Below are positions 57,279 to 62,308 of a stretch of DNA of 64,000 nt, piece after piece. The stretch comes from Escherichia coli (GTDB lineage: Bacteria > Pseudomonadota > Gammaproteobacteria > Enterobacterales > Enterobacteriaceae): NCBI RefSeq assembly GCF_024223415.1, contig NZ_CP100500.1. One strand, written 5' to 3'. Made by a program: the position numbers and the translations under genes. The notes beneath the pieces are model-generated. The model made no database searches, was not told the origin of the DNA, and saw only the letters and a list, made by a program, of their open reading frames with translations. Numbering within the stretch: position 1 is the stretch's first letter; every line of letters begins with the position of its first letter.

Positions 57279-59666
57279 TTAATCATTACAGGATAGGTTC
57301 ATATTCCATTCATAAGCCTCAATGCCGTTAATCAGTAGTTGACGACTTTCTCCCTGAGGAATTATCACTTTCAATGTTTCCCATGCAGGGCGATAATCTC
57401 CATGAGTGTTTATTCTTAACTCAATTGTAGTGGCTGTGCAGTCCAGCTCCCATTCAAGCCACAGAGCATTACCTTCAGTATATCCCCAAGTTTCGCCATC
57501 ATCTTCAAACAGAAGTCCGGTGGATTTACCCGTTCCTTTAATTGGGAATAATTTCAATTTACGATGATTATCTTCCGCTTCACTCACGTATGTTATACGT
57601 TCACTAAGAGGAATACCTGCACCTGCACGTACTAATAATGGTAGTTTTTCCAGTGGCGCGTCGATTGTTATCCATTGACCACCACAGAACCATTCGCCAT
57701 TGTAAAAGTCGTACCATCCTGTTTTGTTGTCGGGTAACCATACTCGTCGTTGTCGTTGCCCTGCTTCCACGACACTTGCAACCAGAATATCGCGTCCCAG
57801 CATAAAATCATCACATTCTTCAAATGTCTGAACATCGTGCTCATGATCAAGGAAGGTTGGACGTAATATTGGCTCATCATCGGCATGTGCCTGCCACAAT
57901 AATGTATATAAATAAGGCATAAGACGATAACGTAACTCAATTGCACTACGAATCGCGGGTGTTACTTCCGGATACATCCATGGTTCATTGACAGTATGAT
58001 CATCATTCCACGAGTGGATCGTAAATCGGGGGTGCATAACACCGTTCTGAACCCAACGAACAAATAATTCTGGATCAGGCTTATCACCAGAAAAACCACC
58101 GACATCATGACCAATGTTATACAATCCTGAGAGGCTCATTCCCAGCCCCATGCGGGTGTTGTATCGAAGGGTATCCCAGTTAGTTCGGTTGTCCCCACTC
58201 CATGTCTGAACATAACGCTGCAATCCGGCGCATCCAGAGCGGGAAATCAAATATGGTCGTTTGTTCGGTGCAAATTTTTGCTGTGCTTCCATAGATGCTC
58301 TGCACATTAAAAGAGGCATTACTGGCCGAATGTGTTTAATGGCGATTTCTTTGCCAAAACCATGACAGCGCGCTTCCCCATCCCATACTTCAAACTCATT
58401 GTTATCATTCCAGGTGGAATCAATTCCCATTTCAAGTAGTTGTGTGGTTACACCTTCCTGCCACCATGCGACTGTTTGTGGGTTCGTAAAGTCCAGATGA
58501 GAACCCTCATCATCCCAGAAGCTGGAGCGTTCCGGGACGTTGTATTCAGAGTCACGAATAAAGAGCTCTTGTTCTGCTACTTCGTTATAGCGAGGATGAT
58601 CCTGCAATAAACATGGTTTTATATTAGCGGCCAGGTGTATCCCTGCATTATGAAACTCCTGACTCATCATTTTAGGGTGTGGAACTTTGTCGTAATTCCA
58701 GTTGAATACGTAGCGTTTACCATTAATAGAAGTATAACCAGAAGATAGCTGGAAAGAATCACATGGAATAGCATGTTCCTTACAAAGACGAATAAACTGC
58801 ATCAATTGATTCTGAGCATCCGGTGCATCTGTATAGTGCATCGTGGAACCGCTGTACCCAAGACTCCATTTTGGACCGAAGAGTGTTTTCCCCGTCAAAC
58901 GAACAAAGGCTTTGGTGATATCAAGTACACATCTGCCAGTGAAAAGATAATAATCAATATCTCCCGCCTCAGCCTGCCAACGGCGGTAAGTTGTATGATA
59001 ATTATCTATTTCATTACCTAAATCCAGCCAACTATTGCTGAGGTTATCATAAAATAATCCAAAGCTAATATCGCTACGGTGAGTAATTGTAAATGGAATA
59101 TGTTTATAAAGAGGGTCTGTACTTACTGCATTATATCCCATTGCGTCCAGGTTCCGCATTTCATAGCGTTTTCCTGTGCGTTGCAGATCCCCGGATTTAT
59201 CACCAAGTCCATAAAAACGCTCGTCATTACGTCGACTTTGATAGTGTGCAACACCATCACCATGAGCGTTTATCAGATAAGCACTGGTAGGGCGATCATT
59301 AACAAGTTCCTGCCACTGACCAGCATTATCCTTATAATGCCATTCAAGCCATAAAGGCTTGTGAATAATTACGCGTAATGAACTGGTCGTGATTGTCAGT
59401 AATTCATCATTCTGCTCCATGTTCCAGGTCGGCAGTGAAAAACCGCTAATATCTTCGCGATGACGCCCTTCCCACGGGACATCCTTTTCCGGAGCAATGC
59501 TCCAGGTTCGGTCCAGCGACAAAACCCCCTTCCGTTTTAATAGAACCCGGAACATATTTTCTTCGAGTATATACAGGCAAAGAGAATGCTGACCATCAAC
59601 TAATAGCTCTATATGATGGGCTGACTGATTTTGTAGTTTCCAGTTTTTTAATGTTTTCATCTCCAC
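57279..59666 (-). CDS. GH31-family alpha-glucosidase/alpha-xylosidase-like hydrolase (Aec37-like)
   Basis: 795-aa ORF with GH31-type catalytic region (..WNDNNEF.., ..GHDVGGF..); distinct from K-12 YicI. Confidence 0.78.
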   Translation of the reverse strand: MEMKTLKNWKLQNQSAHHIELLVDGQHSLCLYILEENMFRVLLKRKGVLSLDRTWSIAPEKDVPWEGRHREDISGFSLPTWNMEQNDELLTITTSSLRVIIHKPLWLEWHYKDNAGQWQELVNDRPTSAYLINAHGDGVAHYQSRRNDERFYGLGDKSGDLQRTGKRYEMRNLDAMGYNAVSTDPLYKHIPFTITHRSDISFGLFYDNLSNSWLDLGNEIDNYHTTYRRWQAEAGDIDYYLFTGRCVLDITKAFVRLTGKTLFGPKWSLGYSGSTMHYTDAPDAQNQLMQFIRLCKEHAIPCDSFQLSSGYTSINGKRYVFNWNYDKVPHPKMMSQEFHNAGIHLAANIKPCLLQDHPRYNEVAEQELFIRDSEYNVPERSSFWDDEGSHLDFTNPQTVAWWQEGVTTQLLEMGIDSTWNDNNEFEVWDGEARCHGFGKEIAIKHIRPVMPLLMCRASMEAQQKFAPNKRPYLISRSGCAGLQRYVQTWSGDNRTNWDTLRYNTRMGLGMSLSGLYNIGHDVGGFSGDKPDPELFVRWVQNGVMHPRFTIHSWNDDHTVNEPWMYPEVTPAIRSAIELRYRLMPYLYTLLWQAHADDEPILRPTFLDHEHDVQTFEECDDFMLGRDILVASVVEAGQRQRRVWLPDNKTGWYDFYNGEWFCGGQWITIDAPLEKLPLLVRAGAGIPLSERITYVSEAEDNHRKLKLFPIKGTGKSTGLLFEDDGETWGYTEGNALWLEWELDCTATTIELRINTHGDYRPAWETLKVIIPQGESRQLLINGIEAYEWNMNLSCND

Positions 59667-59674
59667 ATACTCCC

Positions 59675-60976: not shown

Positions 60977-61237
60977 AATCACCCCACCGGATGTAATAAA
61001 TGATCGAGCGACAACGCAGCTCGGGGTTGCCACATCCCACTTTACCTTTCGGCTTAATACTTAAACCGGAACTACTCATTCACAATAAAAGAGGGGGGCG
61101 ATGAAAAAAAGTTGGTATTGTGCACGTTTTTTCATAAGTAGTTCATATAAATTCTAAAAATAGTCAGAAGTCCTTGCAGTCAGGCTATTCCATCCCATGA
61201 GAATTTTTTCATTTTGAAATTAGAGATAGATCACAAT

Positions 61238-62308
61238 ATGGAAAAAAAACTAAAGATTGCTGATATTGCCATGCGAACAGGCCTTTCATCCAGCACCGTG
61301 TCACGGGTTTTAGCGGGTAAAGCTAATACCAGTTATCGTGCCCGCGAGAAAGTATTGGCGTGTGCCAGAGAGCTTGGGGTTATGGATGGAATGGCATCCG
61401 GCCGTATGTTGTTAAACAACCTTGTCATTTTTGCTCCTCAACGGGCTTTTGATGAGCGAACAGACATTTTTTATTTCCGCGTAATCCAAAGCATCAGCAA
61501 GGCATTATCGCATTATGAGGTTCGGTTGCGTTACTGTGCCCTTGATGAGTTCGATAGTACACCTTCAAAATTCCTGGCGCGCATGAATGAGGCAGAAACA
61601 CAGGCTGCAATATTGCTTGGTATTGATGATCCTCATATACATGATCTTGCAGCAGATTTTTCTAAGCCGTGCGTAATGATTAACTGCCATGATCGACGTA
61701 TGCGTCTTCCCACAGTTGCTCCAGATCACAAAAACATTGGTGCTTTTGCGTCTCACTTTCTGTTTGAAATGGGGCATCGCAGAGTAATGAACATTATGTG
61801 TTTACGTCGATACACAATGGAACTGCGACTTGCCGGAATTAAAGAAGCATGGGAGAGACAGAATCAGAACTTTAAAGATGACAGAGATTTACTCACTATT
61901 AATAGTTTCAGCGCCAAAGAAGCCGAAGAAAAAGTCGGAGCATGGCTGGATATGACAGAGAAAAGTATGCTACCGACTGCTTTTTTGGCAAGTGGGGACT
62001 TCATTGCTGCAGGTATAATTAACGCTTTAAAAAAACGTAATATACGAGTGCCACAAGATGTGTCCGTAATGAGTATTGATGGGTTTAATCTGGCTGCAAT
62101 AGAAGATGTGCCACTTACGGCAGTACATGTACCTCGCGATGAACTGGGTACTGAAGCGGTACATATGTTACAACAAAGACTTGTACGTCCTGATGCAACT
62201 GTTGGTGCATTACTTTTGTATGGGAAACTGGTAATACGAGAATCTGTTCGCCGTATACGGCCAGGGAAAGAGCCAACTCCGATTAAAGGAGATGGACTGT
62301 ATGACTGA
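61238..62308 (+). CDS. LacI-family transcriptional regulator (Aec35-like)
   Basis: N-terminal HTH KIADIAMRTGLSSSTVSRVL; divergent from the MFS/GH31 operon. Confidence 0.78.
   Translation: MEKKLKIADIAMRTGLSSSTVSRVLAGKANTSYRAREKVLACARELGVMDGMASGRMLLNNLVIFAPQRAFDERTDIFYFRVIQSISKALSHYEVRLRYCALDEFDSTPSKFLARMNEAETQAAILLGIDDPHIHDLAADFSKPCVMINCHDRRMRLPTVAPDHKNIGAFASHFLFEMGHRRVMNIMCLRRYTMELRLAGIKEAWERQNQNFKDDRDLLTINSFSAKEAEEKVGAWLDMTEKSMLPTAFLASGDFIAAGIINALKKRNIRVPQDVSVMSIDGFNLAAIEDVPLTAVHVPRDELGTEAVHMLQQRLVRPDATVGALLLYGKLVIRESVRRIRPGKEPTPIKGDGLYD

Follow-up and report, generated by a model that had tools for sequence, protein, structure and literature searches.

Positions 57279–62308 of the 64-kb stretch of Escherichia coli DNA examined here (64,000 nucleotides, referred to below as the window) carry three genes, aec-35, aec-36 and aec-37, which encode a LacI-type regulator, a permease of the major facilitator superfamily (MFS) and a glycoside hydrolase of family 31 (GH31). 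We propose that this module imports an alpha-linked glycoside of glucuronic acid (GlcA) and cleaves it in the cytoplasm, a reading to which we give a probability of about one half. That the substrate contains glucuronate in some position is, if anything, a slightly better wager; that glucuronate is the glycone, such that Aec-37 would be an alpha-glucuronidase, we put forward more tentatively, with the odds somewhat against it. The best explanation of the three genes as a group is that they form a self-contained, horizontally mobile catabolic cassette. The locus itself is already known, having been described in 2006 as part of the island AGI-3 (Chouikha et al., J Bacteriol 188:977), and what is new here is the glucuronate-type substrate hypothesis together with a predicted operator for Aec-35.

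The identity of the genes is clear. All three proteins are 100% identical to those of the avian pathogenic E. coli (APEC) strain BEN2908 (WP_001313395.1, WP_001329026.1 and WP_000412404.1 on chromosome NZ_LR740776.1), where they are encoded beside the selC integrase, and the trio is therefore aec-35 to aec-37 of AGI-3; the resemblance to that segment remarked on in a first-pass annotation of the window is thus an identity. Order and neighbors also agree, with the fos (fructo-oligosaccharide) locus and an IS1 element on one side and a tetratricopeptide-repeat (TPR) gene, an integrase and selC on the other; relative to the window, the BEN2908 island differs by one extra IS66 insertion elsewhere, and the module is structurally no different. 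The final 25 kb of the window, including the fos locus, is 99.9% identical to BEN2908, and the 6-kb region around the module is present over at least 80% of its length in 329 of 5426 E. coli genomes, with many complete genomes at 100% identity. In both strain 7/2 and BEN2908 the gene order is GH31, MFS, LacI, a 76-aa open reading frame (ORF), TPR protein, tyrosine integrase, tRNA-Sec and yicJ–yicI, so that in these island-carrying genomes yicJ–yicI does lie across tRNA-Sec, as the first-pass annotation had it; a tRNA search of the window found none, the integrase and selC being beyond its end. Deletion of aec-35–37 reportedly altered the assimilation of seven carbohydrates and attenuated virulence, and the mutant is said to grow more slowly on galacturonate or trehalose. 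Secondary sources describe AGI-3 as a 49.6-kb selC island with sugar transporters and metabolic functions, report the use of aec35–37 as an APEC virulence or fitness marker, and relate that carbohydrate metabolism is thought to aid colonization of the lung and air sacs by BEN2908.

The first-pass annotation held that the substrate cannot be read from the sequence, which is true of this sequence alone, but the comparative context narrows the choice towards glucuronate-containing glycosides. A profile-guided scan, with one genome taken per species, yielded 80 orthologous loci in which the GH31 proteins are 55–86% identical; ORFs were called and clustered, cluster representatives were annotated, and neighbors were considered within a radius of 9 kb. 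The hosts include Enterobacterales, Pseudomonas, Aeromonas, Vibrio, Marinomonas, Pasteurellaceae, Halomonadaceae and many Alphaproteobacteria, and close homologues of Aec-37 (73–85% identical) are widespread in the Enterobacterales. Directly upstream of the GH31 gene there is an Aec-36 orthologue in 52 of the 80 loci and, in a further 25, the DctM component of a DctQM tripartite ATP-independent periplasmic (TRAP) transporter, such that an organic-anion transporter is the partner in 77 loci; TRAP systems take carboxylates. In 30 of the 80 loci uxaC, uxuA or uxuB (also a UxuR-like regulator) lies no more than 9 kb from the GH31 gene, and in 13 there is a nearby glycoside hydrolase family 2 (GH2) gene whose best NCBIfam match, below its cut-off, is beta-glucuronidase.

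These loci fall into three types. The first, with 44 members at varied chromosomal insertion sites, is the cassette as seen in E. coli (<LacI >MFS >GH31). In the second (<GntR <uxaC <uxuB <uxuA >MFS >GH31), represented in Erwinia, Pantoea, a Klebsiella species, Aeromonas and Zophobihabitans, the same transporter–hydrolase pair stands beside the hexuronate genes, and in the third (<uxuA <GntR (<GH2) <dctP >dctQ >dctM >GH31 >uxuB >uxaC), found in Vibrio, Marinomonas, Pasteurellaceae, Halomonadaceae and Alphaproteobacteria, a TRAP system is the partner. In Vibrio, for example, the order is uxuA, a uxuR-like gene and dctP, followed by dctQ, dctM, GH31, uxuB and uxaC, and the uxuB product scores 763 bits against a fructuronate reductase cut-off of 603; the neighbors in Vibrio hannami pass the curated models for both mannonate dehydratase and fructuronate reductase, and it is therefore the glucuronate branch specifically that is represented there. 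More distant relatives, sought among 1.84 billion cluster representatives and aligned over their full length at 40–50% identity, include three in hexuronate-type contexts (41–47% identical): one lies within a TRAP operon (DctQ-DctM-GH31-DctP) beside UxaC, a mannitol-dehydrogenase-family reductase, a ManD-type dehydratase, KdgK and Eda (P0126), one is in an Eda-KdgK-GH31 operon (P0131), and one neighbors a porin and an ExuT-like MFS protein 45% identical to Aec-36 (P0123). Two others (P0127 and P0134) adjoin MalK-type ATP-binding cassette (ABC) transporters.

The control regions of the orthologous loci point in the same direction. The palindrome aAATTGGTnnACCAATTt, a UxuR/ExuR-type box that is present in two copies in the gntP–uxuA control region of E. 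coli K-12, lies upstream of the MFS–GH31 or TRAP–GH31 genes in loci of the GntR type. Perfect boxes of this type are also present in LacI-type loci of Yersinia, Serratia, Pectobacterium, Budvicia and Hafnia (TTGGTAAACCAA in Yersinia and Serratia), and perfect or near-perfect boxes (TTGGTnnACCAA) stand alongside the LacI-type operators in the LacI–MFS regions of loci L029, L031, L032, L034, L038–L040, L042, L055 and L083. This distribution implies that the LacI-type and GntR-type operons with such boxes are part of the hexuronate (UxuR/ExuR) regulon, and the arrangement suggests dual control of the box-bearing loci by a dedicated LacI repressor and by the hexuronate regulators.

Aec-37 is predicted to be a retaining alpha-glycosidase of the GH31 type. 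It contains all four GH31 domains, with a TIM barrel and flanking domains (PF01055, 301 bits against a cut-off of 23.5; PF13802, 128 bits; PF21365, 82 bits; PF17137, 32 bits). The first-pass annotation made the GH31 assignment hinge on the conserved catalytic aspartates, and by alignment both are in place, as nucleophile D419 (WNDNNE) and acid/base D490 (WSGDN), and are invariant across 132 GH31 sequences and in comparison with YicI and YihQ; D419 falls at the site of the D412A mutation of FjDex31A (6jr8) and opposite the aspartate of the 'D(F)GE' motif of YicI and YihQ. Since inspection of the N-terminus reveals no signal-like segment, the enzyme is expected to be cytoplasmic. Its nearest solved relatives are the Flavobacterium enzyme FjDex31A (E 4e-82, 32% identical) followed by glucosidase II of the endoplasmic reticulum (ER), and its own clade is not represented in the PDB. 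None of the three proteins passes an NCBIfam equivalog model: the top match of Aec-37 is to the alpha-glucosidase MalA (314 bits, cut-off 800), it scores 139 bits against the alpha-glucosidase model PRK10426 (cut-off 553) and 232 bits against the YicI equivalog NF007940 (cut-off 606), and it is just 22% identical to YicI and 23% to YihQ.

Comparison of Aec-37 with other GH31 enzymes (132-sequence alignment, and HMMER alignment to glucosidase II) reveals three motifs at which its clade departs from the canonical pattern. The canonical L-D-I-(D/E)-(Y/H), with the core D-(I/L)-(D/E) at the end of beta3, is replaced by L-S306-S307-G308-Y; the canonical (I/V)-(I/V)-D-P, also found as (I/V)-x-D-P, at beta4 is N346-I-K348-P, with the aspartate replaced by Lys348; and the canonical W-N-D-M-N-E-P becomes W-N-D419-N420-N-E, with an asparagine in place of the methionine beside the nucleophile. 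Residues S307, G308, N346, K348 and N420 are invariant in a 22-sequence alignment that reaches down to 37% identity. Aec-37 thus lacks the -1 subsite motifs of the canonical GH31 alpha-glucosidases (MalA, glucosidase II, GAA/MGAM) as well as falling short of their equivalog models, and it differs from the YicI type of alpha-xylosidase both by its equivalog score and in the aligned C-F pocket residues that follow the beta3 aspartate. We take S306-S307-G308, N346/K348 and N420 to stand where GH31 enzymes make contact with O4, C6 and O6 of the sugar in the -1 subsite, the presumed equivalents being D404, I441 and M519 in GAA, D327, I328, I364 and M444 in MGAM, and D306, C307, F308 and W345 in YicI; substitution of C307I/F308D shifts YicI towards alpha-glucosidase activity. 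If these roles are correct, the loss of two acidic residues and the gain of an invariant lysine are what would be expected for a C6 carboxylate. It is conceivable, although we would not bet on it, that the clade defined by the S-S-G-Y, N-x-K-P and WNDNNE motifs, which includes Aec-37 and LfaA, consists of GH31 alpha-glucuronidases that act as non-orthologous replacements of GH67, GH115 and GH4. To our knowledge alpha-glucuronidase activity is not listed for GH31, and literature searches turned up no alpha-glucuronidase from this family. According to the abstract of one paper, characterized enzymes make up fewer than 1% of GH31.

Aec-36 contains the MFS_1 domain (PF07690, 197 bits) and shares 43% identity with K-12 ExuT across 414 aa (E 5e-120). 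Its top NCBIfam match is TIGR00893 (266 bits, under the cut-off of 395), and its best match in the PDB is DgoT (8e-37), to which it aligns with 'TR' opposite 'DR' and 'AEAS' opposite 'FEAP', retaining the arginine and the glutamate. These are the residues that we understand to serve in DgoT in carboxylate binding and proton coupling (R47 in transmembrane helix 1 and E133 in transmembrane helix 4). By similarity and by the aligned Arg and Glu, Aec-36 belongs with the anion:cation symporters of the ExuT/DgoT type, as had been proposed, although TIGR00893 is below its cut-off. It does not behave as an ExuT orthologue, being partnered with a GH31 gene and not with uxaCA; the Aec-36 orthologues encoded beside GH31 genes are 67–86% identical to each other and 41–46% identical to ExuT, and thus constitute a separate orthogroup. 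The first-pass annotation considered the pairing of a GH31 enzyme with an ExuT-like transporter unusual, which it is when set against yicJ–yicI, but within the orthogroup such partners, or TRAP systems, are the common condition.

We envisage the following scheme. Aec-35 would bind ATGAAAAwwTTTTCAT and repress aec-36–aec-37 as well as its own gene until a sugar effector appears; Aec-36, as a proton-coupled permease of the ExuT/DgoT type, would import a small carboxylate-bearing glycoside, import being the presumed direction of transport; and Aec-37, as a cytoplasmic retaining GH31 enzyme, would cut the alpha-glycosidic bond and free D-glucuronate, which would then enter the Ashwell pathway of the host (uxaC-uxuB-uxuA-kdgK-eda). 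In the most specific form of the proposal glucuronic acid itself would occupy the -1 subsite, with xylan-derived aldouronic acids or compounds of the glucuronosyl-glycerol type as the candidate substrates.

Several considerations weigh against this proposal. Of the 52 MFS-type loci, 45, among them that of E. coli, have no hexuronate gene in the surrounding 9 kb, and the UxuR/ExuR box has decayed in the AGI-3 copy of E. coli and is degenerate in its closest Enterobacteriaceae relatives as well; because both the hexuronate neighbors and an intact box are missing, the link to glucuronate in E. coli rests on orthology. The TRAP systems adjacent to GH31 genes elsewhere could be plain glucuronate transporters (UxuPQM), and Aec-36, too, could be a carrier of monomeric hexuronate, with which the slower growth on galacturonate reported for the deletion mutant would fit; the mutant was reportedly also affected on trehalose, a neutral alpha-glucoside. 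The roles that we ascribe to residues of the C6 pocket of Aec-37 are presumed ones, taken over from the literature on other GH31 enzymes. Moreover, a much wider clade, some members of which adjoin MalK-type sugar ABC transporters, has S-S-G, N-x-K-P and WNDNNE without variation, so that a carboxylate might not be what the motifs reflect. Within the limits of our access to the literature, we found no biochemical characterization of any member of the clade.

One alternative retains glucuronate in the substrate and places it at the other end of the bond. Here the substrate would be an alpha-Glc-, alpha-Gal- or alpha-GlcNAc-(1->x)-GlcA, the importer would read the reducing-end carboxylate, and the GH31 enzyme would remove the neutral alpha-sugar and so free GlcA. 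The evidence from gene context fits this as it fits an alpha-glucuronidase, neutral alpha-glycone specificities are known for GH31, and the GH2 enzyme encoded at 13 loci could trim a beta-linked GlcA off a longer oligosaccharide. However, the most striking changes in Aec-37 are in the -1 subsite motifs and not in the +1 loops, and the parallel with a GH2 beta-glucuronidase points to GlcA as the glycone in both cases. We regard glucuronate as aglycone as unlikely, while keeping it in view.

Alternatively, Aec-37 may be a plain alpha-glucosidase (EC 3.2.1.20), as databases label it, with Aec-36 importing trehalose, nigerose, kojibiose or an isomalto-oligosaccharide. The MalA model is after all its top NCBIfam match, the structures in the PDB that it most resembles are those of a GH31 dextranase and of ER glucosidase II, homologues are named 'alpha-glucosidase', and papers on Dickeya call lfaA an alpha-glucosidase gene. 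The trehalose defect reported for the deletion mutant would also agree. Yet the equivalog scores are far under their cut-offs (314/800, 232/606 and 139/553), the acidic motif that binds O4 and O6 of glucose is missing, the methionine beside the nucleophile is replaced by asparagine, organic-anion transporters are the partners in 77 of 80 loci, and the orthologues are found in company with hexuronate genes and UxuR boxes. A neutral alpha-glucoside therefore seems to us an improbable substrate, though by no means a fanciful one.

The two genes could also be only loosely coupled, with Aec-36 acting as a second hexuronate permease (for galacturonate or glucuronate) and the GH31 substrate entering by some other route. 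The 43% identity to ExuT and the reported galacturonate phenotype would suit this, as would UxuPQM-type monomer transport by the TRAP systems of related loci. It accounts poorly, however, for the pair being adjacent and co-oriented in 52 loci, with the end of the upstream gene no more than 400 nt from the GH31 start (14 nt in the window), and for its movement as a cassette among chromosomal sites; in addition, the Enterobacterales already own an ExuT, from which the Aec-36 orthologues are distinct, and a cytoplasmic glycosidase requires an importer for its substrate. We think such an arrangement quite improbable. A system for a sulfonated sugar analogous to YihQ/YihO, suggested by the anionic-substrate type of the transporter, by the inclusion of sulfoquinovosidases in GH31 and by the alignment of one Aec-37 arginine with R301 of YihQ, is effectively refuted, since within what we take to be the sulfonate-binding triad of YihQ (R301/W304/Y508, located on the K-12 protein) the aligned arginine sits in a GKRY motif that is common to the neutral glucosidase II and the equivalents of W304 and Y508 are both phenylalanine, the two enzymes are just 23% identical, and no sulfoglycolysis genes (yihS, yihT, yihU or yihV-like) are among the neighbors in the 80 loci.

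Returning to the proposed cleavage of an alpha-glucuronide, the closest parallel in the literature is LfaA, which probably belongs to the Aec-37 orthogroup. Under 'glucuronate utilization', Leyn et al. (2017) have an entry 'LfaA, alpha-glucosidase, GH31, cytoplasmic', flanked by UxuB and UxuA, and offer the speculation that glucuronides, once imported, are hydrolysed by this enzyme; the GH31 gene stands between uxuB and uxuA in a glucuronate cluster of Rhodobacteraceae, as it does in loci L089 and L091. In Dickeya the orthologues are some 6 kb away from nagZ, in keeping with the locus tags published for lfaA. The setting differs, LfaA being found in a uxu cluster and the E. coli genes in a LacI-controlled cassette on a pathogenicity island, and the function of LfaA consists of a name and a speculation.

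Among the better-known systems of E. coli, exuT-uxaCA/uxuAB shares the transporter family with aec-36, the glucuronate predicted to be released by Aec-37 would feed its pathway, and boxes of its regulators precede orthologous operons; ExuT, however, carries monomers and has no glycosidase partner, and regulation is of the GntR type as opposed to the LacI type in aec. The logic of uidABC (gus) is the same as that proposed here, with import of a glucuronide, cytoplasmic cleavage and delivery of GlcA to uxaC, and genes resembling its GH2 beta-glucuronidase stand beside GH31 at the 13 loci noted above; the differences lie in the linkage (beta versus a predicted alpha), the enzyme family (GH2 versus GH31) and the transporter (the GPH-type UidB versus an MFS protein of the anion:cation-symporter type or TRAP). 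The yicJ–yicI pair, across tRNA-Sec, also combines a transporter with a cytoplasmic GH31 enzyme, but the transporter is of the GPH type, the enzyme is an alpha-xylosidase, and its C6-pocket residues are unlike those of Aec-37. Finally, the GH67 AguA clusters of Firmicutes combine an intracellular alpha-glucuronidase with an oligosaccharide importer and with uxaC, uxuA, uxuB, kdgK and kdgA. By analogy this is the role that we propose for the GH31 enzyme in Proteobacteria, although GH67 is an unrelated, inverting family and GH31 a retaining one.

If the proposal is right, it would give a concrete biochemical meaning to a pathogenicity-island module that is screened for as an APEC marker, add a new specificity to GH31, and reveal a widespread route for alpha-glucuronides in Proteobacteria parallel to the gus system for beta-glucuronides. 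Were the clade to consist of alpha-glucuronidases served by importers of the Aec-36 or TRAP type, scavenging of alpha-glucuronides would extend to E. coli, plant-associated Enterobacterales and Pseudomonas, Pasteurellaceae and marine Proteobacteria; the substrates might be aldouronic acids derived from xylan, or glucuronosyl-glycerol (lipid) head groups, and the reported contribution of aec-35–37 to APEC fitness would reflect the use of alpha-glucuronides or hexuronates in the host. If it is wrong, the locus stays an ordinary and already described accessory sugar operon.

The remaining member of the trio, Aec-35, has the domains of a LacI/GalR repressor, in agreement with its first description as a divergent LacI-family regulator, with a LacI helix-turn-helix (PF00356, 33.6 bits, cut-off 27) and an effector domain (PF13377, Peripla_BP_3, 90 bits; PF00532). 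Orthologues 49–78% identical occupy the matching position in 45 loci, and across the 45 LacI–MFS intergenic regions the top palindrome is ATGAAAA-NN-TTTTCAT, at the same offset in most. The search for regulator-binding sites in 61034–61237 that the first-pass annotation had proposed turns up one such conserved 16-bp palindrome, O1, in the divergent region, and we predict that Aec-35 acts on it as its operator. When up to one mismatch is allowed O1 is the sole match in the 64-kb window (0.02 expected), and among 93 loci there are 12 exact matches to the consensus, every one of them at the O1 position. A second and presumably weaker operator, O2, is centered 77 bp from the center of O1 on the aec-36 side, in a block conserved among 22 aligned intergenic regions; the E. 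coli site has four mismatches to the O1 consensus and is placed by its alignment position, and many loci have a second operator-like site at an offset of 117–119. Among the inverted repeats of the window (I1–I5), which were set aside, the only arm conserved across species is that containing O1/O2, and the 35-bp I3 is made up of O2 and a nearby half-site.

Table 1. Genes and putative regulatory features of the aec-35–37 module, in window coordinates
Feature	Coordinates	Strand	Description and basis
aec-37	57279..59660	-	GH31 glycoside hydrolase, 793 aa, probable LfaA orthogroup; ORF, Pfam, identity to WP_001313395.1
aec-36	59675..60976	-	MFS permease, anion:cation-symporter type, 433 aa; Pfam, ExuT/DgoT similarity
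aec-35	61238..62308	+	LacI/GalR-family repressor, 356 aa, divergent; Pfam, identity to WP_000412404.1
Divergent control region	60977..61237		261 bp, presumed to contain both promoters
Predicted Aec-35 operator O1	61197..61212		ATGAGAATTTTTTCAT; consensus ATGAAAAwwTTTTCAT; 25 nt upstream of the aec-35 ATG
Predicted weaker operator O2	61120..61135		Reverse complement ATGAAAAAACGTGCAC; consensus ATGAAAAwwTTTGCAa; conserved alignment block
Tentative aec-36 -10 element	61087-61082	-	TATTGT; placed by an alignment-conserved TAnnnT block
Terminator-like hairpin	57212..57250	-	29 nt past the aec-37 stop; 16-bp stem

The ORFs of the three genes are present where the first-pass annotation had put them, extending from their longest possible starts over 57279..59666 (-), 59675..61033 (-) and 61214..62308 (+) in a six-frame list. 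Ribosome-binding-site context and the RefSeq/PGAP annotation of identical proteins favor the ATG codons at 59660, 60976 and 61238, with which the spacing from the MFS to the GH31 gene is 14 nt. The module is moderately AT-rich, with 42.7% GC versus 49.9% for the whole window, in line with its earlier description as AT-rich; the gap of 8 nt given for the same two genes needs the GTG at 59666.

Other transcription signals are less distinct. A consensus promoter scan returned nothing in the control region, and by eye no convincing match to the CRP site TGTGA-N6-TCACA is apparent in the intergenic alignment. The hairpin beyond aec-37, which was missed by a simple terminator scan, has a predicted folding energy of -25.6 kcal/mol (z = -5.8 against 200 shuffles) and is a plausible terminator of the operon. 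An Rfam scan of 55500–64000 gave no match to an RNA family.

The trio evidently moves as one block. Enterobacter, Citrobacter, Kluyvera and Pluralibacter have it at a single conserved chromosomal site, between a radical-SAM/PFL-like/HAD/Gig2-like group and an ABC-F and L,D-transpeptidase pair; in Cronobacter (C. sakazakii) the LacI–MFS–GH31 cassette adjoins moeAB, and in Serratia and Rahnella it adjoins xseA (loci L014–L020, L035, L050, L052, L058, L066, L067 and L079 were covered). In Cricetibacter osteomyelitidis (L065) one glucuronate locus contains two TRAP systems, one directly upstream of the GH31 gene and the other a few genes off with its own GntR regulator, an arrangement that could separate glycoside from monomer uptake.

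Two leads from described enzymes were set aside. AsojAgdL (951 aa, from Aspergillus), whose substrates are malto- and isomalto-oligosaccharides, starch and dextran, yielded no link to the Aec-37 clade. The alpha-glucosidase used diagnostically in Cronobacter corresponds to gluA and gluB, the 1,6-alpha-glucosidase genes of the palatinose cluster (amplicons of about 1.7 kb), and is not a GH31 enzyme of the Aec-37 type; Aec-37 orthologues in Cronobacter are 76–77% identical and lie within the same three-gene cassette.

Between aec-35 and the integrase beyond the end of the window are the 76-aa hypothetical ORF (62333-62563, -) and the 347-aa TPR-repeat protein (62706-63749, -), with a terminator-like hairpin at 62634-62614 after the TPR gene. 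On the other side, a 33-aa ORF at 56997-57098 (-), with the sequence MSDNKKEHFHNVIIRWVIIFATIEYIYLFIKFL, is located in the spacer (32% GC) that separates IS1 from aec-37 and is annotated in RefSeq as 'small membrane protein YkgR'; a promoter-like site (57116-57087, score 10/12) is just upstream of it. Some of the 1648 partial E. coli matches to the 6-kb region are probably due to this ORF. The IS1 element (insA/insB', with its programmed frameshift) at 55984-56681 (+) separates the fos locus from aec-35–37, and in strain 7/2 this same element instead links the module with a truncated sugar transporter, yicL, nlpA and an ETT2-like eip/eilA/air region; since the IS1 flank differs in this way between strain 7/2 and the window, the module is common to differently composed selC islands.

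The fos locus is complete, extending from about 46000 to 55351, and comprises a LacI-family fosR, an MFS gene, two GH32 genes, two OmpG-family porins and a fructokinase (fosK-like, 54389-55351); it is the known fructo-oligosaccharide utilization system of AGI-3. The segment from 20 to 40 kb is island cargo, with an Ag43 autotransporter, a reverse transcriptase/maturase and IS66, IS21 and IS3 elements, and approximately the first 20 kb of the window is core chromosome, containing adeD, uhpABCT, adeQ and other genes.

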